Assembly (NCBI GenBank): GCA_963662795.1
Contig: OY759746.1
Location: forward strand, 2,080,001-2,144,000
Length of the DNA: 64,000 bases
DNA from: Spirochaetia bacterium
GTDB taxonomy: Bacteria; Spirochaetota; Spirochaetia; CADAEX01
Reading direction: 5' to 3'
Positions within the stretch are counted from its first letter, which is position 1; each line of letters begins with the position of its first letter. The notes under the pieces are model-generated. The model worked only from the letters and a program-made list of their open reading frames with translations, did not search any database and had not been told where the DNA came from. The translations under genes were made by a program, and so were the position numbers. Shown one piece after another: positions 427-62,698 of the stretch.

Positions 427-618
427 GGATAACAGCGATTATTTCGCTGCGCTCCCTGTGGTCGCTTGGGCTCCTGCCAGTTGAGCTGGCAGATCGCCAT
501 ATTTTGCTTTCATAAAACCTGAACAACATGTGTTTTATGCTCTTCAAGTTTGTAAAAACTAAATAAATGTATTTTAGAGTTTAGCCACAAAACATCGAAT
601 AATCGCGGGACGTTATAG
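427..618 (+). repeat. Outer attC-like site 1, family A
   Basis: GGATAAC-AGCGATTATTTCG...CGAATAATCGCGGGAC-GTTATAG; full unit with flanking hairpins ~374-670. Confidence 0.9.
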
Positions 619-705
619 GCAATACCTCCGCGAAGAGGCGATCGCCCGGACCTCCGGCCCACGGGCGAGGATATGTAGGCAAAGAAAAAGTGCAAGGGAA
701 AACTC

Positions 706-1149
706 ATGGACGAATTAATAATTCGAAAACTTGAAGAGAAAGATTTAGAAGAATTATCACTTCTTTATAAACAGTTCTGGAATGAAGAATCGAATATTGA
801 AAAGATTAAGGTAAAATACCAAGAGATAAAGAATAATCCAAATTATATAATTTTATCAGCAGTTATTAATGGGAAAATTGTTGGTTCAATTTATGGTGTT
901 ATGTGTGAAGAATTATATGGATCATGCAGCCCTTTTCTTGTTATGGAAGATTTGATTGTTGATAAAAAAGTAAGAAGAAAAGGAATAGGCAAAGCATTAC
1001 TTGAAAAACTTGAAAACATAGGAAAAGCGAAGAGATGCAGCCAGATAATATTTATTACAGAAACAAACAGAGTTGATGCAGTTTCCTTTTATGAAAAAAT
1101 GGGTTTTAACTCAAAAACACATACTGGCTTTAAAAAACAATTGAATTAG
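706..1149 (+). CDS. GNAT family N-acetyltransferase
   Basis: Motif A LIVDKKVRRKGIGKALL and AVSFYEKMGF. Confidence 0.9.
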   Translation: MDELIIRKLEEKDLEELSLLYKQFWNEESNIEKIKVKYQEIKNNPNYIILSAVINGKIVGSIYGVMCEELYGSCSPFLVMEDLIVDKKVRRKGIGKALLEKLENIGKAKRCSQIIFITETNRVDAVSFYEKMGFNSKTHTGFKKQLN

Positions 1150-1188
1150 ATAATGGACAAAGGTAGAAAAAGGTATTATATTGTAAAA

Positions 1189-1204
1189 GTACGCTAAGGC
1201 GTAC
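1189..1204 (+). promoter_or_regulatory. Palindromic operator candidate of the YefM-YoeB module
   Basis: GTACGC-TAAG-GCGTAC just upstream of the antitoxin RBS. Confidence 0.55.
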
Positions 1205-1214
1205 GGAGGGGATT

Positions 1215-1457
1215 ATGGGTGCAATAAATATAACAAATGCAAGGAAAGATTTATATAATATAGTCAAAGCAGTGAATGATTCACATGAGCCAGTGATAAT
1301 TACTGGAAAAAACTCATCTGCAGTAATTGTAGGAGAGAGTGACTGGAGGAATATAGAGGAAACACTTTATCTTGTATCAATACCTGGAATGAGACAGTCA
1401 ATTCTTGATGGAATGAAAGAACCAATAGGAAAATTATCCGAAAAATTAGATTGGTAA
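1215..1457 (+). CDS. yefM: Phd/YefM family antitoxin
   Basis: N-terminal NITNARKDLYNIVKAV...PVIIT; overlaps toxin gene. Confidence 0.9.
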   Translation: MGAINITNARKDLYNIVKAVNDSHEPVIITGKNSSAVIVGESDWRNIEETLYLVSIPGMRQSILDGMKEPIGKLSEKLDW

Positions 1458-1720
1458 TTATGTACAAAGTCTTATTTACCAAGCAAGCACAGAAAGATGC
1501 AAAAAAGCTCTCATCATCGAATTTAAAAAAACAGGCACAAGAGATACTTGAGATATTAAAAGAAAACCCTTTTAAAGAATACCCACCCTATGAAAGATTG
1601 ATTGGGGATTTAACAGGAGCTTTTTCAAGACGAATAAATATCCAGCATAGAATAGTGTATCAGGTGTATGAGGAAGAAAAAATAGTAAAAGTAATCAGGA
1701 TGTGGACACACTACGAGTAA
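1451..1720 (+). CDS. yoeB: Txe/YoeB family toxin (start may be 1460)
   Basis: PPYERLIGDLTGAFSRRINIQHRIVY...WTHYE. Confidence 0.92.
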   Translation: MVIMYKVLFTKQAQKDAKKLSSSNLKKQAQEILEILKENPFKEYPPYERLIGDLTGAFSRRINIQHRIVYQVYEEEKIVKVIRMWTHYE

Positions 1721-1788
1721 TTAATAAGAAAAGAAGACGCCCAGCCCTTGGCGGTGCCGTGCGGGCTGGAAGACGCGGAGGTACATGC

Positions 1789-1980
1789 CTATAACAGCGA
1801 TTATTTCGCTGCGCTCCCTGTGGTCGCTTGGGCTCCTGCCAGTTGAGCTGGCAGATCGCCATATTTTGTTTTCATAAAACCGGAACAACATGTGTTTTAT
1901 GCTCTTCAAGTTTGTAAAAACCAAATAAAAGTATTTTAGAGTTTAGTCATAAAACATCGAATAATCGCGAGACGTTATAT
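1789..1980 (+). repeat. Outer attC-like site 2, family A
   Basis: CTATAAC...GTTATAT; unit ~1740-2033. Confidence 0.9.
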
Positions 1981-2075: not shown

Positions 2076-3740
2076 ATGAAAAATTTAGCTTCTTTTTCGA
2101 TGATTCACCAAAGAGTTTTAGCAATAAAAGAACAACAAGAATTGGAAAACATCGGACAAGCCTTTGATAGATTAGCGATGAGGGTAATTCTTAGGATTAA
2201 TGATGATGATATTGAGGAATCAATAACAGACGGCTCGAATGATTGTGGTATTGATGGAGTTTTTATTGAAGAAAAAACAATACACATTTTTAATTGTAAA
2301 TATGCATATGATATAGAACAAACTGTAAAAAATTTCCCGGGAGTAGAAATTGATAAAATTATTTCAACTATGAATCTGATATTATCTTCTAATCTATCAA
2401 GAGATTCAGTAAATGATGCCTTATGGGATAAGTATATAGAAATTAAAGAAATGTTTTTATGTGGAAGTGCAAATAAAATAGTTATTCATCTTGTATCAAA
2501 TAAAGAAAAACCGATCCATCATGATAAACAGAAATTAGAAACTGCATTATCGAGATATAAAATAATCGAGTATAAATACTATGACCTAGAAACAATGGTT
2601 ACTATCCTTCTTTCTTCTAAAGAAGAGAAAATCGATTCATCACTATTATTATTGGATGATCAACATTTTGATAAGTCCGATGGTGTTTTAAAAACAGTCA
2701 TTGGTGTTGTTACTGCTGAAGATTATTTAAAAATGCTTTTAGATAATAATGATAAAAATAAATTGATGGAAGGAGCATTTAATGACAATGTTAGACTTTA
2801 TAGACCAAAACATTCGGTGAATAAAGCAATAATAAAATCAGCCCTTTCTGATTTAAATTATCAGTTTTTCTATTTAAATAATGGAGTTACAATATTGTGC
2901 GAAGAATGTAATTATGTTCCACACGTTCGTAATCAGACGATAAGTATTAAAAATATGCAAATAATAAATGGAGGGCAAACAACACATTCATTATTTGAAG
3001 CTTATAAAAAAAACCCTGAGAAAGTTCGTAGCATAGATATTCTTGTGAGAATCTGTATAGCTAAAAAAGATTCAGATTTAACAGATATGATAAGTGAAAG
3101 CACAAATAATCAGATCCCGATAGCCTCACGTGATTTAAAAGCAAATGATATTATACAAAAAATGTTACAAGATGAATTTGAAGCAATTGGATATTTTTAT
3201 GAAAGGAAAAGTAACCAATATACAGAAGTCGATTATAAAAGAGTTTTAAATAATGAACTTTTAGCACAATTATATCTTGCATATGAATTAAACCAACCAG
3301 CAGAAGCTAAAAATAATAAAAATCAAATATTTAGTAGTTTGTACGAAAGTATTTTTGATGAAGAAAAAATATCTGCTAAAAAATTATTAAGTATATATAA
3401 TGTTTATCTACCATTAGCAAAAATAAAACAAGAAATACAAAAAAAGAAAAGGAAAAAAGAATTAGAAAATGAAAAAGATGCTTTTCACTCTAGAGCTATA
3501 TTCCATATTCTATATGGTGTGAAAATAATATTAAAAAATGAAGAAAAGGATATAAATAATAAAAATGATACTGAATATGCAATAAGTAAAAGCATTGATT
3601 ATATTAGAGAGATTGTAGAAAGTGAAATGGACAAAAGAAAAGAATTATATACACATGATAAACTTTTTAAAGAAATTGCTACGAATAGAATTGTTGCAGA
3701 GCATTTTGCAAGTAAATATCCAGGAAGAAGTTGTTTTTAG
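2076..3740 (+). CDS. AIPR family (abortive infection phage resistance) protein
   Basis: N-terminal DGSNDCGIDG, then NVRLY, FFYLNNGVTI, QIINGGQTT, TNNQ motifs. Confidence 0.88.
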   Translation: MKNLASFSMIHQRVLAIKEQQELENIGQAFDRLAMRVILRINDDDIEESITDGSNDCGIDGVFIEEKTIHIFNCKYAYDIEQTVKNFPGVEIDKIISTMNLILSSNLSRDSVNDALWDKYIEIKEMFLCGSANKIVIHLVSNKEKPIHHDKQKLETALSRYKIIEYKYYDLETMVTILLSSKEEKIDSSLLLLDDQHFDKSDGVLKTVIGVVTAEDYLKMLLDNNDKNKLMEGAFNDNVRLYRPKHSVNKAIIKSALSDLNYQFFYLNNGVTILCEECNYVPHVRNQTISIKNMQIINGGQTTHSLFEAYKKNPEKVRSIDILVRICIAKKDSDLTDMISESTNNQIPIASRDLKANDIIQKMLQDEFEAIGYFYERKSNQYTEVDYKRVLNNELLAQLYLAYELNQPAEAKNNKNQIFSSLYESIFDEEKISAKKLLSIYNVYLPLAKIKQEIQKKKRKKELENEKDAFHSRAIFHILYGVKIILKNEEKDINNKNDTEYAISKSIDYIREIVESEMDKRKELYTHDKLFKEIATNRIVAEHFASKYPGRSCF

Positions 3741-3794: not shown

Positions 3795-3965
3795 ATATAA
3801 CATAGGATAAAGCGCTTCGCTCGGAGTACCTCGCTTGGCCTACGGCACACATCGTAGGTTTGATCTGCAACTTTTAAAAACAATAAGTTTTGGATAAAAA
3901 ATATTGTAACTTTGAAATACTAATTCTTTGCCTACGATGCGTCGCTTATCCTCGGGACGTTATAG
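3795..3965 (+). repeat. Outer attC-like site 3, family B
   Basis: ATATAAC-ATAGGATAAAGCG...CGCTTATCCTCGGGAC-GTTATAG; unit ~3745-4017. Confidence 0.88.
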
Positions 3966-6205: not shown

Positions 6206-6378
6206 CTATAACAGAGGATAATTCGCTACGCTCGGAGTACCTCGCTTGGCCTGCGGCATATTTTACTATCATTTAAACCAGTCAATTTGAATATTATTTT
6301 TTTTAAGTATAGAAAACAGACAAAAAAAATATATAAAGTTTGTGCCGTAAAACATCGCTTATCCTCGGGACGTTATCT
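6206..6378 (+). repeat. Outer attC-like site 4, family B
   Basis: CTATAAC...GTTATCT; unit ~6158-6424. Confidence 0.88.
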
Positions 6379-6586: not shown

Positions 6587-7861
6587 CATAGGTGTCCAAA
6601 ACAAGGACTATTAATTGCCTGAAATCCCAACTATAATGAATTAAGCTTGGACGGCTAATTCTTTACAGGAAAAGGAAATCAGGCAATGAGTTACAATAAT
6701 ACCATTTTAAAACAAATTCTACAAATAATTCCGAGACATGAATTTGAAAAATCTGTAAAAAAACATAAAGGGGACTTTGCTTCCAAAGGTTTTACCTGTT
6801 GGCAGCATTTTGTCTCCATGCTCTTTGCACAACTTTCAGGACAGACCGGGTTAAGAGGCATTGAAAACTCTTTTGAATCAATCAGTAACCACCTTTATCA
6901 TATGGGTGTAAAAAAGGTAAAACGCTCTACATTATCTTACGCAAATAATAATAGAAGCTGTGAAGTTTATGAAAATGTTTTCACTGATCTTCTTGATAAG
7001 ATATTATCCATGAAGAGAGCGCATAAACATAAATTTAAAAATCCTCTTTACAGTGTTGATGCATCAACTATTGACTTGTGTTTAAATCTCTTTCCATGGG
7101 CAAATTTCAGAAAATATAAAGGCGGAATAAAACTTAATGTAAAACTTGACCATAGTGGATATATTCCAGCTTTTGTATCAGTTACAACTGCAAAAACACA
7201 TGAAGTCAATTCCTTGAAAAAAATGGCTTTCAACAAAGGCGATGTCATCACGTTTGATCGTGGTTATACTGACTTTAAATTATTCGCAAATTATTGTAAT
7301 ACCGGTATTTATTTTGTTACCAGGTTAAAAAAGAATGCTGATTATAAAATTGTCCAGAGAAAAGATACCTCCTCCTTTAAAAATATTACATCTGATCAGA
7401 TCATAGAAATGAAAGGATTTTACACCAGTAAAAAATGCCCGTTAAAATTAAGACGAATCAGAAGCAGAGATCCTGAAACCGGTAAATATATTGTAATTCT
7501 TACCAATAATTTCCTTTGGTCTCCAACAACAATTGCTGCTGTTTACAAAGACAGATGGCAGATTGAAATATTTTTTAAAACTATCAAACAGAACCTCAAG
7601 ATCAAGAAATTCTTTGGTACTTCCAGAAATGCTGTAATGACACAAATCTGGATTGCCCTAATTGCTTTTCTGTTACTTCAGTTCCTTAAAATGTTTTCAT
7701 GTAGAAAATGGACTCATTTTTCACTGATGAAATTGATTCCTGTAATACTGACATCAAGAAAAGATATCTGGACTGTTCTCAATAAACCGCCATCAGAACA
7801 GACTAGAAAAAGTAGTTTCAATCTTCAACTGGAGCTGTTATGATTGTTTTGGACACCTATG
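6587..7861 (+). mobile_element. IS4 family element (1275 bp), 9-bp target duplication AGATTTAAT
   Basis: Perfect 18-bp TIR CATAGGTGTCCAAAACAA; second copy at 43351-44625. Confidence 0.94.
6686..7843 (+). CDS. IS4 family transposase
   Basis: VDASTID, FDRGY, YKDRWQIEIFFK (YREK motif). Confidence 0.95.
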   Translation: MSYNNTILKQILQIIPRHEFEKSVKKHKGDFASKGFTCWQHFVSMLFAQLSGQTGLRGIENSFESISNHLYHMGVKKVKRSTLSYANNNRSCEVYENVFTDLLDKILSMKRAHKHKFKNPLYSVDASTIDLCLNLFPWANFRKYKGGIKLNVKLDHSGYIPAFVSVTTAKTHEVNSLKKMAFNKGDVITFDRGYTDFKLFANYCNTGIYFVTRLKKNADYKIVQRKDTSSFKNITSDQIIEMKGFYTSKKCPLKLRRIRSRDPETGKYIVILTNNFLWSPTTIAAVYKDRWQIEIFFKTIKQNLKIKKFFGTSRNAVMTQIWIALIAFLLLQFLKMFSCRKWTHFSLMKLIPVILTSRKDIWTVLNKPPSEQTRKSSFNLQLELL

Positions 7862-8715: not shown

Positions 8716-8907
8716 AGATAACAGCGATTATTTCGCTGCGCTCCCTATGGTCGCTTGGGCTCCTGCCAGTTGAGCTGGCAGATCGCCATATTTTGTTTTC
8801 ATAAAACCGGAACAACATGTGTTTTATACTCTTCAAGTTTGTAAAAACCAAATAAAAGTATTTTAGAGGTTAGTCACAAAACATCGAATAATCGCGAGAC
8901 GTTATAC
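8716..8907 (+). repeat. Outer attC-like site 5, family A
   Basis: AGATAAC...GTTATAC; unit ~8666-8982. Confidence 0.9.
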
Positions 8908-9873: not shown

Positions 9874-10027
9874 GTATAACAGCGAATGACCGGTTCCGGC
9901 TGTTTCTAAGGAAACAGCCTCCACCCAAATTGCCGAAATAATACATGTTAAGAATAATGGAATAGAGTATAAACTTTTGGAGTGAAAAACACCATCGGCA
10001 ACTTCGGTCATTCGCGGGACGTTATCC
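9874..10027 (+). repeat. Outer attC-like site 6, family C
   Basis: GTATAAC-AGCGAATGACCG...CGGTCATTCGCGGGAC-GTTATCC; unit ~9809-10080. Confidence 0.88.
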
Positions 10028-10116
10028 ACAATATCATCGCAAGAGAACACCGCCCGGACCTCCGGCCAACGGGCGAAGAAAATAGAATCTGCTGTTTAAT
10101 ATACTTTATACAGAAC

Positions 10117-10150
10117 ATATATAGTTTTCTAGTTATTTAATAGGTTAGGC
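10117..10150 (+). other. Cassette-internal attI-like landing site (carrier 1)
   Basis: ATATATAGTTTTCTAGTTATTTAATAG-GTTAGGC; conserved in 6 cassettes, sequence diverges exactly after GTT. Confidence 0.7.
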
Positions 10151-10777: not shown

Positions 10778-10831
10778 TAGTGTAATTGCAATTATTGAAT
10801 TATCTGTTTACTATAGTTTTGGAATTTTATA

Positions 10832-13810: not shown

Positions 13811-13924
13811 GCTTAACAACTGCTTCAAGCTGATTCGGCTATGTCACGATTCTTGCTAGTCGTCGCTACTCATCTCGGTAAGAATTGCGCCATATACGCC
13901 TCGCAGGTTAAGCAAATATTATAA
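13811..13924 (+). repeat. Inner canonical attC (R' mutated to ATT)
   Basis: GCTTAAC-AACTGC-TTCAAGC...GGTTAA-GCAAAT-ATTATAA; R'' matches GTTAGGC at 10144 with one mismatch. Confidence 0.78.
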
Positions 13925-13997
13925 AACAAAAATAGAAACGGGGGAAGTCCGGCCTTGGCGTTGCCGTGCGGCCTGGACAAGAAGCGATGATACTGGT

Positions 13998-14166
13998 GGA
14001 TAACAGAGGATAATGCGCTTCGCTCCCTTTGGTCGCTTGGCCTGCGGCACACATCGTAGTGTTTGAACTACAACATTTATTAACAACGAGTTTTGAAAAA
14101 TATTATATAGCTTTGGAATATTCATTCTTGGACTACGATGCGTCGCTTATCCTCAGGACGTTATCC
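13998..14166 (+). repeat. Outer attC-like site 7, family B
   Basis: GGATAAC...GTTATCC; unit ~13947-14219. Confidence 0.88.
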
Positions 14167-14280
14167 ACAATATCATCGCAAGATGACACCGCCCGGACCT
14201 CCGGCCAACGGGCGAAGAGTAGAAAAAGACATAATGGTTAACCAATTAAACCGATACATTCAAAGAAAGCAGAGGAATAT

Positions 14281-15060: not shown

Positions 15061-15084
15061 TAGGTCTTTAAAAAGGATAAAGTA

Positions 15085-15495: not shown

Positions 15496-15545
15496 TCCGG
15501 CCTTGGCATTGCCGTGCGGCCTGGACAAGAAGCGATGATACTGGT

Positions 15546-15737
15546 GGATAACAGCGATTATTTCGCTGCGCTCCCTGTGGTCGCTTGGGCTCCTGCCAGT
15601 TGAGCTGGCAGATCGCCATATTTTGTTTTCATAAAACCGGAATGACATGTGTTTTATGCTCTTCAAGTTTGTAAAAACCAAATAAAAGTATTTTAGAGTT
15701 TAGTCACAAAACATCGAATAATCGCGAGACGTTATCC
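15546..15737 (+). repeat. Outer attC-like site 8, family A
   Basis: GGATAAC...GTTATCC; unit ~15495-15789. Confidence 0.9.
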
Positions 15738-17275: not shown

Positions 17276-17449
17276 GGATAACAGCGGTTGAAGCACTACG
17301 CTCGGATTACCTCGCTTGGCCTTCGGCAAACATCGTAGGATTTGAACTACAACTTTTAGAAACATTAAGTTTTTGAAAGACAATAAATAAAAGCATTGAG
17401 TATTCTATTCTTGGTCTACGATGCTTCGCTTAACCGCGGGACGTTATCC
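17276..17449 (+). repeat. Outer attC-like site 9, family D
   Basis: GGATAAC-AGCGGTTGAAGC...GCTTAACCGCGGGAC-GTTATCC; unit ~17224-17501. Confidence 0.88.
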
Positions 17450-17537
17450 ACAATATCATCGCAAGAGACCATCGCCCGGACCTCCGGCCAACGGGCGAAG
17501 AAAATGTGATCATTTGTAAATATATTTATACATAGAA

Positions 17538-17571
17538 ATATATAGTTTTCTAGTTATTTAATATGTTATAT
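17538..17571 (+). other. Cassette-internal attI-like landing site (carrier 2)
   Basis: ATATATAGTTTTCTAGTTATTTAATAT-GTTATAT. Confidence 0.72.
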
Positions 17572-18741: not shown

Positions 18742-18880
18742 ATATAACAAGAGATTTGGAGTAGTCAAAATTTATTGACACGATTCTGGCTAAAGACGTT
18801 CGGGCAATGGCCCTCACTCCAGAATCGCGCCAATTCCGCGAAGACGCGGACCAATTTTGCTACTCAAATCGTCGTTATAA
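18742..18880 (+). repeat. Inner canonical attC
   Basis: ATATAAC-AAGAGATTTGGAGTAG...CTACTCAAATCGTC-GTTATAA; R'' complementary to GTTATAT at 17565. Confidence 0.85.
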
Positions 18881-18949: not shown

Positions 18950-19141
18950 GGATAACAGCGATTATTTCGCTGCGCTCCCTTTTGGTCGCTTGGGCTCCTG
19001 CCAGTTGAGCTGGCAGAGCGCCATATTTTGTTTTTATAAAACCAGAACAACATGTGTTCTATGCTTTTTATGTTTGAAAAATCAAATAAATGTATTTTAG
19101 AGTTTAACCACAAAACATCGAATAATCGCGAGACGTTATCG
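18950..19141 (+). repeat. Outer attC-like site 10, family A
   Basis: GGATAAC...GTTATCG; unit ~18898-19194. Confidence 0.9.
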
Positions 19142-20350: not shown

Positions 20351-20504
20351 CGATAACAGCGAATGACCGGTTCCGGCTGTTTCTAAGGAAACAGCCTCCA
20401 CCCAAATTGCCGAAATAATACATGTTAAGAATAATGGAATAGAGTATAAACTTTTGGAGTGAAAAACACCATCGGCAACTTCGGTTATTCGCGGGACGTT
20501 ATTT
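20351..20504 (+). repeat. Outer attC-like site 11, family C
   Basis: CGATAAC...GTTATTT; unit ~20301-20557. Confidence 0.88.
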
Positions 20505-21506: not shown

Positions 21507-21679
21507 AAATAACAGAGGATAATTCGCTACGCTCGGAGTACCTCGCTTGGCCTTCGGCATATTTTGCTATCATTAAAACAGTTCATATTATGTTTTTACT
21601 CTATTTAAATATATTTCTTAAAAACTATCCTGTTGAAAAAGGTTTTAGCAAAACATCGCTTATCCTCAGGACGTTATTT
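21507..21679 (+). repeat. Outer attC-like site 12, family B
   Basis: AAATAAC...GTTATTT; unit ~21455-21732. Confidence 0.88.
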
Positions 21680-23752: not shown

Positions 23753-23945
23753 AAATAACAGCGATTATTTCGCTGCGCTCCCGATGGTCGCTTGGGCTCC
23801 TGCCAGATGAGCTGGCAGATCGCCATATTTTGTTTTAATAAAACTGGAACAACATGTATTCTATGCTTTTTAAGTTTGAAAAAATTTAAATAAAAGTATT
23901 TTAGAGTTTAGCCACAAAACATCGCATAATCGCGAGACGTTATAA
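23753..23945 (+). repeat. Outer attC-like site 13, family A
   Basis: AAATAAC...GTTATAA; unit ~23701-23997. Confidence 0.9.
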
Positions 23946-25129: not shown

Positions 25130-25284
25130 TTATAACAGCGAATGGCCGGTTTCGGCTGTTTCTGAAAAAACCAGCCTCAACCCAAATTGCCGGAATAAAT
25201 AGTGGTACAGATTGATGAATACAAAATAAGCTTAAAGGGTAACAAATAACAACGGCAACTTCGGTCATTCGCGGGACGTTATAG
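25130..25284 (+). repeat. Outer attC-like site 14, family C
   Basis: TTATAAC...GTTATAG; unit ~25080-25337. Confidence 0.88.
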
Positions 25285-27241: not shown

Positions 27242-27395
27242 CTATAACAGCGAATGACCGGTTCCGGCTGTTTCTAAGGAAACAGCCTCCACCCAAATTG
27301 CCGAAATAATACATGTTAAGAATAATGGAATAGAGTATAAACTTTTGGAGTGAAAAACACCATCGGCAACTTCGGTCATTCGCGAGACGTTATAC
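27242..27395 (+). repeat. Outer attC-like site 15, family C
   Basis: CTATAAC...GTTATAC; unit ~27191-27471. Confidence 0.88.
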
Positions 27396-28262: not shown

Positions 28263-28417
28263 GTATAACAGCGAATGGCCGGTTTCGGCTGTTTCTGAAG
28301 AAACCAGCCTCAACCCAAATTGCCGGAATAAATAGTGGTACAAATTGATGATTACAAAATAAGCTTGAAGGGTAACAAATAACAGCGGCAACTTCGGTCA
28401 TTCGCGGGACGTTATAA
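28263..28417 (+). repeat. Outer attC-like site 16, family C
   Basis: GTATAAC...GTTATAA; unit ~28197-28469. Confidence 0.88.
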
Positions 28418-29884: not shown

Positions 29885-30038
29885 TTATAACAGCGAATGG
29901 CCGGTTCCGGCTGTTTCTAAGGAAGCAGCCTCCACCCAAATTGCCGAAATAATAAATGTTAAGAATAATGGAATAGAGTATAAACTTTTGAAGTAAAAGA
30001 CACCATCGGCAACTTCGGTCATTAGCGGGACGTTATCC
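29885..30038 (+). repeat. Outer attC-like site 17, family C
   Basis: TTATAAC...GTTATCC; unit ~29833-30090. Confidence 0.88.
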
Positions 30039-30127
30039 ACAATATCATCGCAAGAGGAAATCGCCCGGACCTCCGGCCAACGGGCGAAGAAAATAGAATC
30101 TGCTGTATATTATACTTTAGACATAAC

Positions 30128-30161
30128 ATATATAGTTTACTAGTTATTTAATATATTAGGT
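30128..30161 (+). other. Cassette-internal attI-like landing site (carrier 3; core mutated to ATT)
   Basis: ATATATAGTTTACTAGTTATTTAATAT-ATTAGGT. Confidence 0.65.
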
Positions 30162-31304: not shown

Positions 31305-31476
31305 GGATAACAGAGGATACTGCGCTACGCTCGGAGTACCTCGCTTGGCCTGCGGCACACATCGTAGATTTTGAACTAAAACATCTATAAACAACAAATT
31401 TTTGAAGAAAAATACTGCAACCTTGAAATATTAACTCTTAGGCTACGATGCGTCGCTTATCCTCAGGACGTTATCC
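31305..31476 (+). repeat. Outer attC-like site 18, family B
   Basis: GGATAAC...GTTATCC; unit ~31254-31528. Confidence 0.88.
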
Positions 31477-31565
31477 ACAATATCATCGCAAGAGAACGCC
31501 GCCCGGACCTCCGGCCAACGGGCGAAGAAAATAGAATTTGCTGTATAATATACTTTATACATATC

Positions 31566-31599
31566 ATATATGGTTTTCTAGTTATTTAATATGTTATGT
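31566..31599 (+). other. Cassette-internal attI-like landing site (carrier 4)
   Basis: ATATATGGTTTTCTAGTTATTTAATAT-GTTATGT. Confidence 0.72.
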
Positions 31600-33824: not shown

Positions 33825-33900
33825 ACATAACAATCATTTGGAGTTGACGCCTTCTCGGCGCTGCGCTTCTACGATGGCGCAACTCAAATGGGCGTTATAA
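33825..33900 (+). repeat. Inner canonical attC (76 bp)
   Basis: ACATAAC-AATCAT-TTGGAGTTG...CAACTCAA-ATGGGC-GTTATAA; TGAAACATAAC is the exact reverse complement of GTTATGTTTCA at 31593. Confidence 0.88.
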
Positions 33901-33970: not shown

Positions 33971-34142
33971 GGATAACAGAGGATACTGCGCTACGCTCGG
34001 AGTACCTCGCTTGGCCTACGGCATATTTTGCTATCATCAAAAATGAATAGTAAAAGTTAAACTTTTTTCAAAATTAACAAAGTAGACATAAATGTTTTAG
34101 AGTATGAACCGCAAAACATCGCGTATCCTCAGGACGTTATCC
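33971..34142 (+). repeat. Outer attC-like site 19, family B
   Basis: GGATAAC...GTTATCC; unit ~33919-34195. Confidence 0.88.
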
Positions 34143-34256
34143 ACAATATCATCGCAAGATGACACCGCCCGGACCTCCGGCCAACGGGCGAAGAGTAGAA
34201 AAAGACATAATGGTTAACCAATTAAACCGATACATTCAAAGAAAGCAGAGGAATAT

Positions 34257-35036: not shown

Positions 35037-35060
35037 TAGGTCTTTAAAAAGGATAAAGTA

Positions 35061-35471: not shown

Positions 35472-35521
35472 TCCGGCCTTGGCATTGCCGTGCGGCCTGG
35501 ACAAGAAGCGATGATACTGGT

Positions 35522-35693
35522 GGATAACAGCGGTTCAAGCGCTGCGCTCGGAGTACCTCGCTTGGGCTTCGCCACATTTTACTTTTATTTAATCCAGGAA
35601 ACATCTATTTTATAGTTTTCAAGTTTAGCAATACGTTTAAATGGGTTTTTAAGTTTTTACCGTAAAACGTCGCTTAACCGCAGGACGTTATCC
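35522..35693 (+). repeat. Outer attC-like site 20, family D
   Basis: GGATAAC-AGCGGTTCAAGC...GCTTAACCGCAGGAC-GTTATCC; unit ~35471-35738. Confidence 0.88.
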
Positions 35694-36970: not shown

Positions 36971-37140
36971 GGATAACAGAGGATAATGCGCTTCGCTCCC
37001 TTTGGTCGCTTGGGCTTCGCCACACATCGTAGGTTTTGAACAACAACTTTTTGAAACTACACTTTTGAAAGAAAAATAATACAACTGTTAGAAAATTATA
37101 CTTGTTCGACGATGCGTCGCTTATCCTCGGGACGTTAGCA
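36971..37140 (+). repeat. Outer attC-like site 21, family B
   Basis: GGATAAC...GTTAGCA; unit ~36925-37192. Confidence 0.88.
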
Positions 37141-38643: not shown

Positions 38644-38835
38644 TGCTAACAGCGATTATTTCGCTGCACTCCCTGTGGTCGCTTGGGCTCCTGCCAGTTG
38701 AGCTGGCAGATCGCCATATTTTGTTTTCATAAAACCGGAACAACATGTGCTTTGTGCTCTTCAAGTTTGTAAAAACCAAATAAAAGTATTTTAGAGTTTA
38801 GTCACAAAACATCGAATAATCGCGAGACGTTATCC
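38644..38835 (+). repeat. Outer attC-like site 22, family A
   Basis: TGCTAAC...GTTATCC; unit ~38594-38887. Confidence 0.9.
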
Positions 38836-40853: not shown

Positions 40854-41024
40854 GGATAACAGAGGATAATGCGCTTCGCTCCCTTTGGTCGCTTGGGCTT
40901 TGCCACACATCGTAGGTTTTAAACTACACCTTCTATAAAAAACAAGTTGTAGAAGAGAAATATTGCAACTTCTAAATATTCATTCTTGGTCTACGATGCG
41001 TCGCTTATCCTCGGGACGTTATGC
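40854..41024 (+). repeat. Outer attC-like site 23, family B
   Basis: GGATAAC...GTTATGC; unit ~40803-41077. Confidence 0.88.
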
Positions 41025-41889: not shown

Positions 41890-42060
41890 GCATAACAGAG
41901 GATAATGCGCTACGCTCCCTATGGTCGCTTGGGCTTCGCCACACATCGTAGGTTTTGAACTACAACTTCTATAAACAATTAGTTTTGGAAGAAAAATATT
42001 GCAACTTTTAGATATTAATACTTTGGCTACAATGCGTCGCTTATCCTCAGGACGTTATTT
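41890..42060 (+). repeat. Outer attC-like site 24, family B
   Basis: GCATAAC...GTTATTT; unit ~41838-42113. Confidence 0.88.
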
Positions 42061-43047: not shown

Positions 43048-43239
43048 AAATAACAGCGATTATTTCGCTGCGCTCCCGATGGTCGCTTGGGCTCCTGCCA
43101 GTTGAGCTGGCAGATCGCCATATTTTGTTTTCATAAAACCGGAACAACATGTGCTTTGTGCTCTTCAAGTTTGTAAAAACCAAATAAAAGTATTTTAGAG
43201 TTTAGTCACAAAACATCGAATAATCACGAGACGTTATAA
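43048..43239 (+). repeat. Outer attC-like site 25, family A
   Basis: AAATAAC...GTTATAA; unit ~42996-43291. Confidence 0.9.
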
Positions 43240-43316
43240 GCAATGTTCCCGCAAGAGAAAACCGCCCGGACCTCCGGCCGACGGGCGAGGAAAGCATAAT
43301 CTGCTTTATACATAAA

Positions 43317-43350
43317 ATCTATTGTTTTCTAGTTATTTAATATGTTATAC
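43317..43350 (+). other. Cassette-internal attI-like landing site (carrier 5), IS4 immediately downstream
   Basis: ATCTATTGTTTTCTAGTTATTTAATAT-GTTATAC. Confidence 0.7.
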
Positions 43351-44632: not shown

Positions 44633-45280
44633 ATGAGATATCAATTATACAACGAAATTAAAGTAGAAACATTGAATAAAGATAATAAATATTTTTATAA
44701 AGGAATATTGGAATTAAAATATATTTTATTTATAGATTACATGAATGAAATTAATAAATTATTATTAGATGATACTAATAATTTTGATGAAAAACCAAGA
44801 TATAAAGTAATAAGCATAAAAAAAACTATTAATATTTTGAAGAAAGATTCTTATAGGAAAATATTTATCATAGAAATTAATAAACAAAATATAGTAATTG
44901 ATAATTTTGGAACAATAAATAAAGATGAAGAAATCCAAGAAATAGTAAAAGAAAAATATATTGCAGAAAAAATGCGTATTTATGATAAAATATTAGAAAC
45001 ATGGAATCTATTAGAATCAAAATATAATTTAAAAATATATAAAGAGTTTAGAAATAAAGTCATTGCACATAATCAGCTTAAAACTGTGAATGGGGTAAAA
45101 GATGGATTTGAATATAACATAAAAGAGTTTGAAAATCTTGAGGAAATACATGAAATAACTAAAATATTAATAATAGATCTTAATTCTTTAATAAATGGAG
45201 AATTGAATGTTATTATAGCAGTAGAAAATGAGCAAAAGAAAATGGCTGAAGCAATATTTAAAACAATAAATAACGTATAA
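44633..45280 (+). CDS. Putative HEPN (AbiU2-like) protein, possibly 5'-truncated by the IS
   Basis: IYKEFRNKVIAHNQ motif; stop codon lies in the inner attC R'' box. Confidence 0.55.
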   Translation: MRYQLYNEIKVETLNKDNKYFYKGILELKYILFIDYMNEINKLLLDDTNNFDEKPRYKVISIKKTINILKKDSYRKIFIIEINKQNIVIDNFGTINKDEEIQEIVKEKYIAEKMRIYDKILETWNLLESKYNLKIYKEFRNKVIAHNQLKTVNGVKDGFEYNIKEFENLEEIHEITKILIIDLNSLINGELNVIIAVENEQKKMAEAIFKTINNV

Positions 45281-45380
45281 CAAACGCATGCAACTGACAA
45301 TTTTTTTCTCATAGTTTTTGAATACTCAAAAACTATGACAACTATTCGAGACAAAATTACAGCTGATGCGGTCGTTATAA
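45275..45380 (+). repeat. Inner canonical attC
   Basis: GTATAAC-AAACGC-ATGCAACTG...CAGCTGAT-GCGGTC-GTTATAA. Confidence 0.82.
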
Positions 45381-45450: not shown

Positions 45451-45624
45451 GCATAACAGAGGATAATTCGCTGCGCTCGGATTACCTCGCTTGGCCTGCG
45501 GCATATTTTACTATCATATAAATGATAATAATTGATAATTATCCTTTTTATATTTTGTTAATCAAACACAAGAGATTTCTATAGTTCGAGCCGTAAAACA
45601 TCGCTTATCCTCAGGACGTTCTCC
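45451..45624 (+). repeat. Outer attC-like site 26, family B
   Basis: GCATAAC...GTTCTCC; unit ~45399-45676. Confidence 0.87.
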
Positions 45625-46539: not shown

Positions 46540-46710
46540 CGAGAACAGAGGATAAAGCGCTTCGCTCCCTCTGGTCGCTTGGGCTTCGCCACACATCGTA
46601 GGTTTTGAACTACAACATTTATAAACAACAAGTGTTGGAAGAAGAATATTGCAGCTTTGAAATATTCATTCTTAGGCTACGATGCGTCGCTTATCCTCGG
46701 GACGTTATGC
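46540..46710 (+). repeat. Outer attC-like site 27, family B
   Basis: CGAGAAC...GTTATGC; unit ~46491-46784. Confidence 0.87.
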
Positions 46711-47692: not shown

Positions 47693-47846
47693 GCATAACA
47701 GCGAATGGCCGGTTTCGGCTGTTTCTGAAAAAACCAGCCTCAACTCAAATTGCCGGAAAAATAGTGGTACAGATTGATGAATATAAAATAAGCTTGAAAG
47801 GTAACAAATAACAGCGGCAACTTCGGTCATTCGCGGGACGTTATAC
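47693..47846 (+). repeat. Outer attC-like site 28, family C
   Basis: GCATAAC...GTTATAC; unit ~47628-47899. Confidence 0.88.
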
Positions 47847-50480: not shown

Positions 50481-50651
50481 GTATAACAGAGGATAAAGCG
50501 CTACGCTCGGAGTACCTCGCTTGACCTGCGGCACACATCGTAGGATTTGAACTTCAACATCTAGAAACAACCAGTTTTGAAAGAATAATAAAACAGCTTT
50601 GAATATCAATGCTTATCTTACGATGCGTCGCTTATCCTCAGGACGTTATGT
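50481..50651 (+). repeat. Outer attC-like site 29, family B
   Basis: GTATAAC...GTTATGT; unit ~50431-50704. Confidence 0.88.
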
Positions 50652-51575: not shown

Positions 51576-51767
51576 ACATAACAGCGATTATTTCGCTGCG
51601 CTCCCTATGGTCGCTTGGGCTCCTGCCAGTTGAGCTGGCAGATCGCCATATTTTGTTTTCATAAAATCGGAACAGCATGTGTTTTATGCTTTTCAGATTT
51701 GATAAAACCAAAAAACCGTATTTTAGAGTTTAATCACAAAACATCGAATAATCGCGAGACGTTATAC
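51576..51767 (+). repeat. Outer attC-like site 30, family A
   Basis: ACATAAC...GTTATAC; unit ~51530-51817. Confidence 0.9.
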
Positions 51768-52941: not shown

Positions 52942-53114
52942 GTATAACAGCGGTTCAAGCGCTTCGCTCGGAGTACCTCGCTTGGCCTTCCGGCAAACAT
53001 CGTAGTGTTTAAGCTACAACTTTTAGAGACAACACGTTATGAAAGAAAATAATAACACCTTTGTGTTTTATAATCTTGGCCTACGATGCTTCGCTTAACC
53101 GCGGGACGTTATAA
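52942..53114 (+). repeat. Outer attC-like site 31, family D
   Basis: GTATAAC...GTTATAA; downstream hairpin split by an IS. Confidence 0.88.
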
Positions 53115-53201: not shown

Positions 53202-53684
53202 ATGAGATACAGTTTAGGATTTAAAGAATAAACAGTAAGAAAAGTACTCGAATCAGATGGAAAATCCGCTCATGTGATAGCAATTGAATCTGGAGTCTCT
53301 GATCAGACATTACGGAACTGGTTGAATAAAGCAAAAGAAGGTACACTTGATAGTCTGAATACTGTAAGTAGTGCCGGTCGGTCACCTCGAGAAAAATTGA
53401 ATCTGGTTATAGAATCCGGTTCTGTTAAAAATGAGGATCAGGGGAAATGGCTTCGTGAAAAAGGTCTGCACACTGAACATATCACTCAATATAAACAGGA
53501 ACTGCGAGACATGGTAGAAGATAAAGGTCACAAAGAAAAACAGAAAATCAAAAATCTCCAGAAAGAAAATAAACGACTGCAAAAAGAGCTGAATAAAAAA
53601 GAAAAAGCTCTTGCTGAAATGGCTGCACTCTATACTCTTAAAAAAAAAGCAGAAGCTCTTTGGGGGGACGAAGAGGACGACTGA
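53202..53684 (+). pseudogene. IS3-like OrfA with premature stop at codon 10
   Basis: GGAGG, then ATG AGA TAC...GAA TAA, in frame with ORF 53274..53684; A9G slippery site near 53640. Confidence 0.78.
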
Positions 53685-55971: not shown

Positions 55972-56163
55972 TTATAACAGCGATTATTTCGCTGCGCTCC
56001 CGATGGTCGCTTGGGCTCCTGCCAGTTCAACTGGCAGATCGCCATATTTTGTTTTCATAAAACTGGAACAACATGTATTTTATGCTTTTCGAGTTTTAAA
56101 AAACTAAATAAAAGTATTTTAGAGTTTAGCCACAAAACATCGAATAATCGCGAGACGTTATAC
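55972..56163 (+). repeat. Outer attC-like site 32, family A
   Basis: TTATAAC...GTTATAC; unit ~55922-56281. Confidence 0.9.
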
Positions 56164-57027: not shown

Positions 57028-57181
57028 GTATAACAGCGAATGGCCGGTTGAGGCTGTTTCTGAAAAACCAGCCTCAACCCAAATTGCCGGAATAAATAGT
57101 GGTACAGATTGTTGAATACAAAATAAGCTTGAAAGGTAACAAATGACAGCGGCAACTTCGGTCATTCGCGGGACGTTATAC
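57028..57181 (+). repeat. Outer attC-like site 33, family C
   Basis: GTATAAC...GTTATAC; unit ~56945-57233. Confidence 0.88.
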
Positions 57182-58877: not shown

Positions 58878-59069
58878 GTATAACAGCGATTATTTCGCTG
58901 CGCTCCCTGTGGTCGCTTGGGCTCCTGCCAGTTGAGCTGGCAGATCGCCATATTTTGTTTTCATAAAACCGGAACAACATGTGTTTTATGCTCTTCAAGT
59001 TTGTAAAAACCAAATAAAAGTATTTTAGAGTTTAGTCACAAAACATCGAATAATCGCGAGACGTTATCC
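58878..59069 (+). repeat. Outer attC-like site 34, family A
   Basis: GTATAAC...GTTATCC; unit ~58828-59120. Confidence 0.9.
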
Positions 59070-59956: not shown

Positions 59957-60126
59957 GGATAACAGCGGGTAAGAAGCTACGCTCCCTTCGGTCGCTTGGG
60001 CTTCGCCATATTTTGCTTTCAAACAACAAGATGAATTATTGTTATGTCTTTTCAATCTAATTAATTTAGACAAATAAGTAATATAGTTTTAGCCGCAAAA
60101 CATCTTTTACCCGCTGGACGTTATAT
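59957..60126 (+). repeat. Outer attC-like site 35, family E
   Basis: GGATAAC-AGCGGGTAAGAAG...CTTTTACCCGCTGGAC-GTTATAT; unit ~59904-60224. Confidence 0.87.
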
Positions 60127-60894
60127 GCAATACCGCTTAACTGTTTATGGATTGAGATGAATAGTTTTCAATTGTGCAAACATTCCCATGCCCAAGAAAA
60201 GCCCGGCGTCCTGCCGGGCTTAAGAAAAAAGGACGGTTTAAAAAATAGATTATACTATTTTAATAAAATACTATTTAAAAATAGATAATAGAAATAAAAA
60301 CGCAAAAAAAGTAAACCTGAAAAACCTTTTAAAAAAGGTTGTAGCTGAATAAAAAGATCAAATATTTTAAAGCAAATATACTTTTACAAATATAACCAAT
60401 AAATTGTATTTGACAAAAATTGAAATTAATTAAGAACGGGCAAAAAAGACTGATTTTTAAGTTTAAATTTGTAAATATTGTAACTTATTATGGATTGATT
60501 TCAAAAAGGAAAAAATACTCTTAGATATTTATTATTTTAGTTTTGATACTTAATCTTAAAAGAAAAAAGAAGAATTACAGGCCAACAATTAAGAATTGTT
60601 TTGTAGTTAAAGTGCTAGCAGCTTTAGACTGAAGGAAAAAATATGCAAAATCGTGATCGTAAAATGCAAGCAAAGCAATAGATTTTCAGAGAAAAATAGA
60701 TATGAAGAAATGACAATATTTTTAAAATACAATTAAAAAATATTACTATATCCAGAGTACTGTAAATAAAAACTATAAAGAAAACGTCCGAATAGGGGAA
60801 TTCACCCCGTTTACGCCGTCCTGGCTTCAACGGGAAGAGGGCATGGGAAAAAAAGGCAAAAAGACTGTAAAAGAATTGCGGTACTGCACATAAC
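60120..60894 (+). other. ORF-less cassette
   Basis: Complementary ends present; no + strand ORF of 60 aa or more. Confidence 0.8.
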
Positions 60895-61059
60895 AGCGGT
60901 TCAAGCGTTTCGCTCGGAGTACCTCGCTTGGCCTACGGCAAACATCGTAGGGTATTTACTACTCCTGTTGGGAACAACACTGTTCAAGAGAGAGAAAGTT
61001 TATCTTAATGTTAAATAATCTTTATCTACGATGCTTCGCTTAACCGCGGGACGTTATAT
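60888..61059 (+). repeat. Outer attC-like site 36, family D
   Basis: ACATAAC...GTTATAT; unit ~60806-61110. Confidence 0.88.
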
Positions 61060-61147
61060 GCAATACGACCCCAAGAGAAATCGCCCGGACCTCCGGCCCA
61101 CGGGCGAAGAAAAGATGATTTACTGTATAATACACTCTATATATAAA

Positions 61148-61181
61148 ATATATAGTTTTCTAGTTATTTAATATGTTATCT
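61148..61181 (+). other. Cassette-internal attI-like landing site (carrier 6)
   Basis: ATATATAGTTTTCTAGTTATTTAATAT-GTTATCT. Confidence 0.72.
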
Positions 61182-61233
61182 TCACAACATCATATGCAAG
61201 CCTTGTACATGAGAGCTTTATAGTGTACAATAT

Positions 61234-62370
61234 ATGTGCAAATATGTACATGACGGTGGTGAAATGAATAATAAACCCAATAATGGATTACCTTTACTCC
61301 CTCCAAAAGAAAAATTAGAAAATATTACAGTGTTACGAAAAGCAATAAAAGCTAATACAGAATTGGCAAAACTGAATGGGTATTGCTCTACAATCCCCAA
61401 TGAAAACATTTTGTTGAATGCAATAATACTAAATGAAGCAAAAACCAGCTCAGAAATAGAGAATATAATCACTACTCATGATGAAATTTACAAAGCATTA
61501 CTAAAAAAAGACGGAAAATATGATCCTGAAACGAAAGAAGTATTAAATTATAGAGAAGCAATATGGCAGGGTTATAATTTAATAACAGAGACTAATATTC
61601 TAACTACAAATACAATTGTTAGAATTCAAGAAACGCTGGAAAAAAATAAGGCTGGAATAAGAAAATTACCTGGAACGAAATTAATGAATGATCAAACCGG
61701 TGAAGTAATATATACACCTCCAGATGATGAGAAAATTATAAGAGATTTATTAAGAAATCTTGAAGAATACATCAATATTGATGATGAGATAGATCCGCTA
61801 ATAAAACTTGCAATAATTCATTATCAGTTTGAATCTATACATCCTTTTTATGATGGAAACGGCAGAACTGGAAGAATTATTAATGTTTTATACCTTGTAT
61901 TAAAGGGATTGTTGAAATCTCCAATACTTTATTTGAGTAGTTATATAATAAAAAACAAAGGAAATTATTATAATTATCTGCAGAAAGTAAGAAATGAAAA
62001 TGACTGGGAAAGCTGGGTAATGTTTATGTTGGAGGCTGTAGAAAAAACTTCATTAGAAACATTAAGTACTGTAAAAGCAATTAGAGATTTGATGGAAGAA
62101 ACAATTGAATATTGCAGAGAAAAAATGTCAAAATCAAGTTATTCAAAAGAATTAATTGAATTGCTTTTTGTTCAACCTTATACAAAAATTGATTTTCTGG
62201 TGAATAACAATATTGCTGAAAGAAGAACTGCAAGTAAATATTTATCGCAGCTGGAAGAACTTGGAGTGTTAGAATCATTTAAATCCTGGAAAGAAAAAAT
62301 ATATATAAATAAAAAATTATATAAACTATTAAGAGGATCAGAAGATAACAAAAAATTGGAGCAGATTTGA
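61234..62370 (+). CDS. Fic family protein (start may be 61264)
   Basis: EAKTSSEIEN, HYQFESIHPFYDGNGRTGR. Confidence 0.93.
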   Translation: MCKYVHDGGEMNNKPNNGLPLLPPKEKLENITVLRKAIKANTELAKLNGYCSTIPNENILLNAIILNEAKTSSEIENIITTHDEIYKALLKKDGKYDPETKEVLNYREAIWQGYNLITETNILTTNTIVRIQETLEKNKAGIRKLPGTKLMNDQTGEVIYTPPDDEKIIRDLLRNLEEYINIDDEIDPLIKLAIIHYQFESIHPFYDGNGRTGRIINVLYLVLKGLLKSPILYLSSYIIKNKGNYYNYLQKVRNENDWESWVMFMLEAVEKTSLETLSTVKAIRDLMEETIEYCREKMSKSSYSKELIELLFVQPYTKIDFLVNNNIAERRTASKYLSQLEELGVLESFKSWKEKIYINKKLYKLLRGSEDNKKLEQI

Positions 62371-62448
62371 TTTTTGTCATGTAAATTGCGAAAGCAATTT
62401 ACATGACAACCCTGCGGGACAATCGAGCAGCTCAATTTGGCGTTAGCT
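62343..62448 (+). repeat. Inner canonical attC
   Basis: AGATAAC-AAAAAA-TTGGAGC...GCTCAA-TTTGGC-GTTAGCT; GAAGATAAC is the reverse complement of GTTATCTTC at 61175. Confidence 0.85.
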
Positions 62449-62526
62449 ATACTGGAATATTTAGAAAAGAGGAAAAGTCCGGCCTTGGCGGTGCCGTGCG
62501 GCCTGGACAAGAAGGGGTCGTACTGT

Positions 62527-62698
62527 ATATAACAGAGGATAATTCGCTACGCTCGGAGTACCTCGCTTGGGCTTCGCCATATTTTGCTTTCAAACAAACA
62601 GAAGAATATTATTTTTATTCTTTTCAAGTTTTAAAAAAAAGACAAATGAGAATTATAGTTTTAGATGCAAAACATCTTTTACCCGCGGAACGTTCTCC
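62527..62698 (+). repeat. Outer attC-like site 37, chimeric family B left arm / family E right arm
   Basis: ATATAAC-AGAGGATAATTCG...CTTTTACCCGCGGAAC-GTTCTCC; unit ~62477-62748. Confidence 0.82.

Follow-up and report, generated by a model that had tools for sequence, protein, structure and literature searches.

An integron-like cassette array of a Spirochaetia chromosome with lopsided outer hairpin sites, nested canonical sites and an insertion-less tyrosine recombinase at its head

The 64,000-nucleotide stretch analysed here (hereafter the window) comprises positions 2,080,001-2,144,000 of contig OY759746.1 (assembly GCA_963662795.1), the single contig of a 3.93-Mb Spirochaetia chromosome. 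It is an inner slice of a one-strand cassette array of at least 181 cassettes, which extends from genome position 1,847,951 to about 2,180,000 (331 kb). The cassettes are separated by long imperfect hairpins (the outer sites), some of them enclose a second layer of attI-like docking modules and attC hairpins (the inner sites), and the gene of a tyrosine recombinase stands at the head of the array. Nearly all long open reading frames (ORFs) of the window are located on the + strand and the gaps between them are occupied by families of 100-300-nt repeats. The G+C content is 28-40% per 2-kb block, compared with 39.7% for the genome. Genome-wide motif counts revealed that the repeats are confined to one block (about 1.85-2.18 Mb) and to a single strand, and an Rfam scan of the window gave no matches at gathering scores.

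The outer sites share the layout ..ATAAC-A-NNNN-L''....L'-N'N'N'N'-RRRAC-GTTAT.., in which NNNN pairs with N'N'N'N' and one A stands opposite five bases. A strict pattern presupposing this geometry (AAC-A, 4 bp paired, 5 nt, GTT) was matched by 181 sites spanning genome positions 1,848,872 to 2,179,988; a 182nd match (genome 1,892,620, 225 nt) was without family motifs and was discarded as spurious. Within the window, 33 sites follow the strict pattern and, together with four variants (3799-3961, 29889-30034, 43052-43235 and 62531-62694), they make up the 37 outer sites listed below. In the list, coordinates are those of the window and include the boxes; a counts the unpaired nt that follow AAC, b those that precede GTT, and delta is b-a.

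Outer site 1, 427..618, +, family AGCGATTAT, 192 nt; a,b 1,5; folded
Outer site 2, 1789..1980, +, family AGCGATTAT; a,b 1,5
Outer site 3, 3795..3965, +, variant TAAC-AT-AGGATAA; delta +4; one of the 4 paired bases lost
Outer site 4, 6206..6378, +, family AGAGGATAA; delta +4
Outer site 5, 8716..8907, +, family AGCGATTAT; a,b 1,5
Outer site 6, 9874..10027, +, family AGCGAATGA, 154 nt; folded
Outer site 7, 13998..14166, +, family AGAGGATAA
Outer site 8, 15546..15737, +, family AGCGATTAT
Outer site 9, 17276..17449, +, family AGCGGTTGA
Outer site 10, 18950..19141, +, family AGCGATTAT
Outer site 11, 20351..20504, +, family AGCGAATGA
Outer site 12, 21507..21679, +, family AGAGGATAA
Outer site 13, 23753..23945, +, family AGCGATTAT, 193 nt
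Outer site 14, 25130..25284, +, family AGCGAATGG
Outer site 15, 27242..27395, +, family AGCGAATGA
Outer site 16, 28263..28417, +, family AGCGAATGG
Outer site 17, 29885..30038, +, family AGCGAATGG; one mismatch in the 4-bp helix; delta +5
Outer site 18, 31305..31476, +, family AGAGGATAC
Outer site 19, 33971..34142, +, family AGAGGATAC
Outer site 20, 35522..35693, +, family AGCGGTTCA
Outer site 21, 36971..37140, +, family AGAGGATAA
Outer site 22, 38644..38835, +, family AGCGATTAT
Outer site 23, 40854..41024, +, family AGAGGATAA
Outer site 24, 41890..42060, +, family AGAGGATAA
Outer site 25, 43048..43239, +, family AGCGATTAT; one mismatch in the 4-bp helix; delta +4
Outer site 26, 45451..45624, +, family AGAGGATAA
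Outer site 27, 46540..46710, +, family AGAGGATAA; R'' is GAGAAC
Outer site 28, 47693..47846, +, family AGCGAATGG
Outer site 29, 50481..50651, +, family AGAGGATAA
Outer site 30, 51576..51767, +, family AGCGATTAT
Outer site 31, 52942..53114, +, family AGCGGTTCA; the example given in the initial annotation
Outer site 32, 55972..56163, +, family AGCGATTAT
Outer site 33, 57028..57181, +, family AGCGAATGG
Outer site 34, 58878..59069, +, family AGCGATTAT
Outer site 35, 59957..60126, +, family AGCGGGTAA; bulge TGGAC
Outer site 36, 60888..61059, +, family AGCGGTTCA
Outer site 37, 62527..62698, +, chimeric: 5' arm of AGAGGATAA, 3' arm ..TTTTACCCGCGGAAC; arms unpaired

The initial annotation of this DNA, made from the sequence of the window, had proposed that the outer sites are lopsided, 154-193 nt long and divided into five families. 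In 36 of the 37 window sites TAAC is indeed followed by a single A and a 4-bp helix leading into the L stem, and five extra bases (RRRAC) precede GTTA, so that 0-1 nt are unpaired on one arm and 4-5 on the other in place of the symmetric spacers of attC. The AAC-to-GTT distance is 146-185 nt (154-193 nt with the 7-nt boxes), and five L-box families are seen in the window. In the window the sites were also located without the pairing rule, by means of the R box and two flanking motifs (UP and DN, see below); b-a was then +4 or +5 in 31 of 32 sites, and a scan that took every AAC...GTT pair without bias gave (1,5) for the other five. A different register with standard spacing would have removed the asymmetry. 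Near-symmetric registers paired at most 4 bp in all 32 sites, compared with 7-13 bp in the lopsided one, and therefore this objection does not hold. The sole exception to the geometry, site 37, is a chimera: its arms come from two families and are unable to pair, and an illegitimate or homologous event has probably left it as a dead site.

Over the 181 sites of the array, the 5-nt bulge reads GGGAC (95 sites), GAGAC (46), AGGAC (28) or otherwise (12), and the base following AAC is A in every case, although this is fixed by the search pattern. The AAC-to-GTT length is 139-187 nt (147-195 nt with boxes), which falls outside the 57-141 nt given for attC in Nivina 2016 (PMC5027507), where the unpaired central spacer of attC measures about 5-6 nt on each arm. 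Folding of the bottom strands of sites 1 and 6 with ViennaRNA (DNA parameters) produced an R stem, a 4-nt bulge with an adjacent G-T pair and a long stem (z = -4.07 and -4.97; none of 200 shuffles folded as well). The bottom strand was more stable than the top strand by a mean of 2.43 kcal/mol, with the bias present in 151 of the 181 sites; the advantage stated for attC in the same source is 2.12 kcal/mol (Nivina 2016, PMC5027507). In attC hairpins the extrahelical base(s) are placed on the bottom-strand L'' arm; in the outer sites, as read from the sequences, one extra base is present on the top 5' arm in the families AGCGATTAT-T-TCG, AGAGGATAA-T-GCG and AGCGGTT-C/A-AAGCG, and none in the first 11 bp of the family AGCGAATGACCG.

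Conservation continues on both sides of the hairpin. UP is a conserved GC-rich hairpin starting 55 nt before AAC (GTCCGGCC..GGCCTGGAC), which could be parsed in 113/181 sites; one of its stem positions is G-C in 66, A-T in 27 and A-C in 17 cases, and some compensatory changes are seen. DN, which begins 30 nt past GTT, is a 25-mer with almost no variation (CGCCCGGACCTCCGGCCNACGGGCG) and was present in 139/181 sites. A GGAC motif is common to UP, DN and the 5-nt bulge (for a window example of UP and DN see 13950-13990 and 14190-14220). Pairing of UP with DN as an extension of the hairpin was considered and rejected: by eye, pairing is limited to the 16-21 nt adjoining AAC/GTT, and UP and DN look like separate hairpins.

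The flanks of the outer sites carry the marks of a crossover point. The bases after GTT vary from cassette to cassette; their complement precedes the AAC at the other end of that cassette and does not lie on the opposite side of the site they flank. When the 18 nt after GTT were compared with the 18 nt before the downstream AAC, a gapped score of at least 11 of 18 was obtained for 156/180 cassettes; the two flanks of a single site reached it in 43/181 cases and random pairs in 8.8%. The complementarity extends over 16-21 nt. Because the 5' end of a cassette is thus complementary to its own 3' end, the crossover should lie at or near G|TT, as in integrons. Among 46 pairs of homologous cassette bodies, the downstream hairpin was shared far more often than the upstream one. 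In the 26 pairs that were at least 95% identical, identity crossed the downstream hairpin and ended within a few bases of GTT in 11 pairs, stopped inside the hairpin in 5 and continued into the next cassette in 2. The resolution of the crossover position is about 5 nt, and some of the pairs are drawn from groups of three or four copies, which means that they are not independent. Recent activity in the absence of an IntI (integron integrase) is suggested by several cassette pairs that show 100% identity in different contexts, while the IntI gene of the genome is frameshifted and has 3 stops.

The first crossover of the array lies 150 nt past the stop codon of a co-oriented gene for a 339-aa tyrosine recombinase, the position expected of an attI junction. 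The first cassette, a VapBC-like pair, starts with G|TTATACGAAAAACC (G|TTATACG...) and its 3' end bears the matching GGTTCATCGTATAAC. The head recombinase carries SAM-like and catalytic domains and stays below the cut-offs of four family profiles: 200.1 bits on the IntI model TIGR02249 (cut-off 265; two stretches, with a gap at profile positions of about 172-230), 214.5 bits on the XerA model NF040815 (cut-off 220), and 175.4 and 173.2 bits on the XerC and XerD models, below both cut-offs (335 and 330, respectively). Its best match among solved structures is IntI4 (132.5 bits), followed by XerA (131.3 bits). Between two aligned blocks it has 24 residues where IntI4 has 66, and therefore the IntI insertion (the I2 helix region) is absent. 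A tree of 30 rows unites seven Spirochaetota IntI in a single clade (Shimodaira-Hasegawa-like approximate likelihood ratio test, SH-aLRT, 100), and the head recombinase groups outside it with Spirochaetia homologues; its nearest named relatives are from Spirochaetia metagenome-assembled genomes (MAGs). Residues 1-70 constitute an extra N-terminal domain, which aligns to the N-termini of 585-604-aa Bacteroidota homologues; residues 12-44 gave 11.9 bits (E = 0.17) on the Pfam family HARP (PF07443), below its cut-off of 25.

The only gene of the genome that covers the IntI insertion is a pseudogene at 412 kb, with a frameshift and three in-frame stops. It lies among insertion sequence (IS) genes 1.4 Mb from the array, and no attC cluster was found near it within 395-430 kb. 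Another insertion-less tyrosine recombinase (297 aa; genome 2050716-2051606, - strand, 29 kb upstream of the window) lies in an ordinary cassette of the array behind a VapBC-like pair and is treated as cargo. It is 31% identical to the enzyme found beside the corresponding array of the same-family genome G441 (see below). The proposal of the initial annotation that a divergent integrase may serve the outer array is thus supported by the sequence and by comparison, in that an insertion-less recombinase heads the array and is the candidate enzyme of its sites.

Homologues of the head recombinase (E <= 1e-60) are present in 19/201 genomes of the class sample. The same geometry recurs beside several homologues. 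In a Spirochaetia MAG (L010) with a 54%-identical enzyme, 154-159-nt sites with 1-3 vs 6 unpaired nt and cassette-specific flanks begin right after the gene. Bacteroidota homologues 40-45% identical (from Flavobacterium, Prolixibacteraceae and others; loci L024, L026, L078, L074, L018, L027 and L031) are followed by sites of 120-150 nt with the layout TAAC-A-stem...stem-NNNAC-GTTA and cassette-specific flanks, and the R'' flank of the next site matches the R' flank of the previous one (e.g. L078, L024 and L026). Under strict pairing, b-a was at least +2 in 17/22 sites downstream of homologues vs 4/14 upstream, and within the arrays the asymmetry ranged from +3 to +5. Since IntegronFinder 2.0 reports almost no IntI for Bacteroidota (bioRxiv 2022.02.28.482270), these arrays are unlikely to be partnered by a classical IntI. 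G441 has an outer-type array (b-a = +4/+5) too, and its start adjoins that genome's best homologue of the head recombinase. Judged by these sequences, a lopsided geometry characterizes the sites associated with this recombinase family and is no local oddity.

The second layer is located inside the outer cassettes. A conserved attI-like module of ~65 nt follows DN in 26 outer cassettes, always on the + strand and within the array; no copy was found elsewhere in the genome. The last bases of the module are ..TAGTTATTTAATATGTT, some 97 nt past the outer GTT; straight after the module's own GTT the sequences diverge. At the 3' end of the docked cassettes, just before UP, a short AAC/GTT hairpin with symmetric spacers is found, the R'' flank of which matches the start of its own inner cassette (4-5 of 5 bases) in 11/26 docked cassettes; only 11 were counted because the automated caller chose spurious AAT/ATT ends for about half of the modules. 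The window contains six modules, four well-formed inner attC and one with a shortened arm; no convincing hairpin was found for the sixth module.

Docking module, 10082..10146, +, ends GTT; 5' edge approximate
Docking module, 17503..17567, +
Docking module, 30093..30157, +, ends ATT
Docking module, 31531..31595, +
Docking module, 43282..43346, +
Docking module, 61113..61177, +
Inner attC with a shortened L' arm (degenerate), 13811..13913, +, canonical family; 65% identical to a G441 canonical attC
Inner canonical attC, 18742..18880, +, AAC-GTT 18746-18876; a,b 4,3
Inner canonical attC, 33825..33900, +, AAC-GTT 33829-33896; a,b 3,3
Inner canonical attC, 45275..45380, +, AAC-GTT 45279-45376; a,b 3,3, read by eye
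Inner canonical attC, 62343..62448, +, AAC-GTT 62347-62444; a,b 3,3; 75% identical to a G441 IntI-linked attC

The inner sites are symmetric, as the initial annotation had stated: a,b is (4,3), (3,3), (3,3) and (3,3), and the 6/6 spacing given there reflects other box limits. Matches of the docking module to the attI of the array, to the rest of the genome and to the attI region of G441 were at most 16 nt and not significant. A simple scan for sigma-70 promoters and terminators found none in the module, and for this reason its TATAAT is not called a promoter. Three modules end in ATT instead of GTT (window 30093-30157, genome 1887733 and 2064794), with ..CTAAT as the matching 3' flank of the window copy; possible causes are a paired change in the crossover triplet and decay.

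The origin of the inner sites is indicated by G441, which encodes an intact IntI (387.6 bits) with a divergent array of 91-99-nt sites, TAAC-aa-TCAGTTGGAG...GCTCAACTGG-gc-GTTA; a,b is (2,2) in four of five of these and (2,3) in one. Seven inner attC of the host are 56-85% identical to the IntI-linked sites of G441 (85% at genome 1,967,245 and 83% at 1,984,042; 56-65% for those at window 13812, 18746, 33829 and 45278), which settles the kinship of the inner sites with IntI-linked attC. The IntI pseudogene of the host is 58.5% identical to the G441 IntI over 270 aa. G441 keeps the two array types apart, the outer-type array lying 2.2 Mb from the IntI array, and one copy of the docking module (88% identity) is present inside its outer-type array. 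As a control, all 16 attC beside a bona fide IntI (508 bits) in the same-class genome G284 had a = b and were 55-83 nt long.

These observations are best accounted for, with a probability of about 0.7, by a 331-kb sedentary integron-like array in which the outer sites are attC equivalents, presumably acted upon by the insertion-less head recombinase, and the inner layer belongs to a second, canonical system. Each outer site is a 139-187-nt imperfect hairpin in which a 4-bp helix connects the R stem (TAAC/GTTA) with the L stem; on the bottom strand this leaves a one-sided bulge of 4-5 nt directly behind AAC, which would serve as the asymmetric mark. Strand exchange would occur at or next to G|TT, and each cassette would therefore carry its own downstream hairpin. 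The 339-aa IntI/Xer-like recombinase would excise and insert the outer cassettes through their folded bottom strands. The classical IntI of the lineage, which is decayed in the host genome and intact with its own array in G441, most likely inserted ordinary cassettes at the docks inside outer cassettes, and the outer system may then have shuffled them. The suggestion that two SPECIFICITIES are layered at one locus accordingly finds support at the sequence and comparative level, as nested sets of crossovers with distinct geometries.

Several points weigh against this reading. The recombinase is assigned to the outer sites by position and co-occurrence, and the excision and insertion of outer cassettes are deduced from assembled sequence. 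The backbone of the recombinase tree is unresolved. The set of 181 sites was collected with a pattern that presupposes the geometry, and the unbiased checks cover the window. The array-side homologue in G441 is 36% identical, has 267 aa, is without the N-terminal domain and points away from the array; given this divergence, the two genomes do not establish one conserved pairing of enzyme and site for the family. Finally, 8 of the 26 near-identical cassette pairs lose their identity 5-6 nt past the AAC of the downstream R'', where the core of a different hairpin family follows; a simple integron model does not predict this. The stop at R'' suggests a second exchange point there or replacement of the core; top-strand exchange or templated replacement of hairpin cores are possible causes. 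In one pair of the window (14143-15560 and 34119-35540) 99% identity over 300 nt is followed by cores of the families AGCGATTAT and AGCGGTTCA.

An alternative is that the locus is one classical integron, with the outer sites a lineage-specific attC variant of the now-broken IntI, the array a set of clustered attC sites without an integrase (CALIN) and the head recombinase a bystander. The pseudogene and the intact IntI of the same-family genome are in line with it, as are the following traits of the outer sites: AAC/GTT triplets, an L box that looks canonical and has its extra base on the same arm, and a more stable bottom strand; moreover, IntI enzymes tolerate varied attC structures, according to Nivina 2016 (PMC5027507). 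Yet the intact IntI of G441 adjoins its own symmetric 91-99-nt attC, 2.2 Mb from the outer-type array, which lies beside an insertion-less recombinase. In Bacteroidota, for which IntegronFinder 2.0 reports almost no IntI (bioRxiv 2022.02.28.482270), homologues of the head recombinase are followed by arrays of this geometry. No intermediates between outer and inner site types were seen in the window, and 100%-identical cassette copies exist despite the decayed IntI. Taken together, this makes a single classical integron quite unlikely. The head recombinase is also the only intact recombinase placed at the locus, all 26 docking modules are inside the array and nowhere else in the genome, and GTT/AAC triplets with cassette-specific end complementarity are common to both layers, so one enzyme might serve the outer sites as well as the inner attC and docks, with no second specificity. 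We regard this as unlikely, in view of inner attC up to 83-85% identical to those beside the intact G441 IntI, of geometries that stay distinct (+4/+5 for outer and about 0 for inner sites) and of a docking module with no detectable likeness to the attI of the array itself.

The outer elements could, at the outset, also be taken for dispersed palindromic repeats accumulated between genes, either units resembling repetitive extragenic palindromes (REP) or miniature inverted-repeat transposable elements (MITE), or else terminators or insulators, and not for recombination sites. In favour of this, the region is AT-rich and the elements are long palindromes of higher GC content, flanked at fixed distances by the UP and DN hairpins. 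Such repeats would not be expected on one strand and at one locus only, with cassette-specific end complementarity, with boundaries of duplicates at GTT or AAC, with a head recombinase and an adjoining junction, and with the same logic in other phyla; this explanation is already disfavoured and is highly improbable. Returning to the integron-like array with two systems, a broader and more tentative generalization, which we consider rather doubtful, can be put forward: a family of tyrosine recombinases in Spirochaetota and Bacteroidota that never gained the I2 insertion might carry out integron-type recombination of folded single strands, reading a one-sided 4-5-nt bulge (..RAC) by the cleaved AAC in place of a symmetric spacer and I2-bound flipped bases. 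In this lineage the system might be stacked on a classical integron, the captures of one being re-packaged and shuffled by the other, and the identity stops at R'' might reflect top-strand exchange too, which would make hairpin cores swappable.

The cargo of the window includes defence- or conflict-like genes at 2076-3740, 10190-13804, 31627-33801 and 61234-62370, which encode an AIPR protein, a UvrD-like helicase with Top1-type zinc ribbons, an AAA_13 ATPase and a Fic-domain protein, respectively; the last three are all in cassettes with an inner docking module. Insertion sequences are also present within the array: 385-aa ORFs at 6686-7843 (+) and 43369-44526 (-), of which the one scanned is an IS4-like DDE transposase, 320-aa ORFs at 21969-22931 (+) and 39458-40420 (-), of which the one scanned is IS30-like (HTH_38 and rve), and an IS3-like pair at 53274-54736 (+). 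A 480-nt cassette occurs in four copies (genome 1891172, 1953477, 1967590 and 2144386, the last just beyond the window end). Its 291-nt body, 95-99.7% identical between copies, is short for a typical gene, and it may be an ORF-less or small-RNA cassette. Some cassettes of the array recur in public contigs, namely in runs under another organism label and in activated-sludge metagenomes; such contigs cannot show mobility.

A literature search found no paper on cassette arrays headed by an insertion-less recombinase, on the lopsided geometry or on nested attI-like docks, although supplements might list such arrays as CALINs. New here are the geometry rule, the nesting and the size of the array. 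Integron finders require the I2 insertion; in Spirochaetota and Bacteroidota a large stock of mobile cassettes, with many defence-like ones among them, may be overlooked or wrongly labelled by standard surveys. The arrays usually cited as large hold roughly 200 cassettes (bioRxiv 030866); with its 331 kb, its at least 181 cassettes and the full sequence signature of integron-type exchange, we place the present array above these. According to Escudero 2020 (PMC7790495), integron integrases passed from double-strand to single-strand recombination through gain of the I2 helix, and an I2-less head enzyme combined with one simple, conserved site rule asks whether I2 is needed for hairpin recombination. 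It also raises what the spacer geometry encodes and whether two cassette systems feed each other.

Compared with known systems, the array is most readily set beside sedentary chromosomal integrons such as the Vibrio cholerae superintegron with its Vibrio cholerae repeats (VCR). It shares with them one-strand, promoter-poor cassettes, homogeneous AAC/GTT imperfect palindromes, cassette starts complementary to their own inverse core, a better-folding bottom strand, an integrase gene with an attI junction at the head, and a cargo rich in toxin-antitoxin and defence-type genes (here AIPR, AAA_13, UvrD-like and Fic). It differs in a head recombinase without the IntI insertion, in sites of 147-195 nt with boxes vs 57-141 nt, in conservation that reaches about 55 nt on both sides of the core (UP and DN) and in its length of 331 kb. 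The spacer differs as well, being a 4-bp helix with a one-sided 5-nt bulge instead of the 5-6 unpaired nt on each arm described for attC in PMC5027507. Integrons of the Treponema type, from the same phylum, were recognized by an IntI above the cut-off in 29/301 sampled genomes, each with an adjoining cassette array. The insertion is present in their IntI, which have about 325-336 aa across a region that takes up about 270 in the head recombinase, and their attC are 55-83 nt long and symmetric in 16/16 cases, unlike the outer sites. The Xer/dif-type pdif modules of Acinetobacter plasmids likewise involve Xer-like recombinases, with modules bounded by short inverted sites. Unlike these, the outer sites form long hairpins, all of one polarity, whose R-box complementarity is specific to the cassette, and the recombinase at their head scores far below the XerC and XerD cut-offs.

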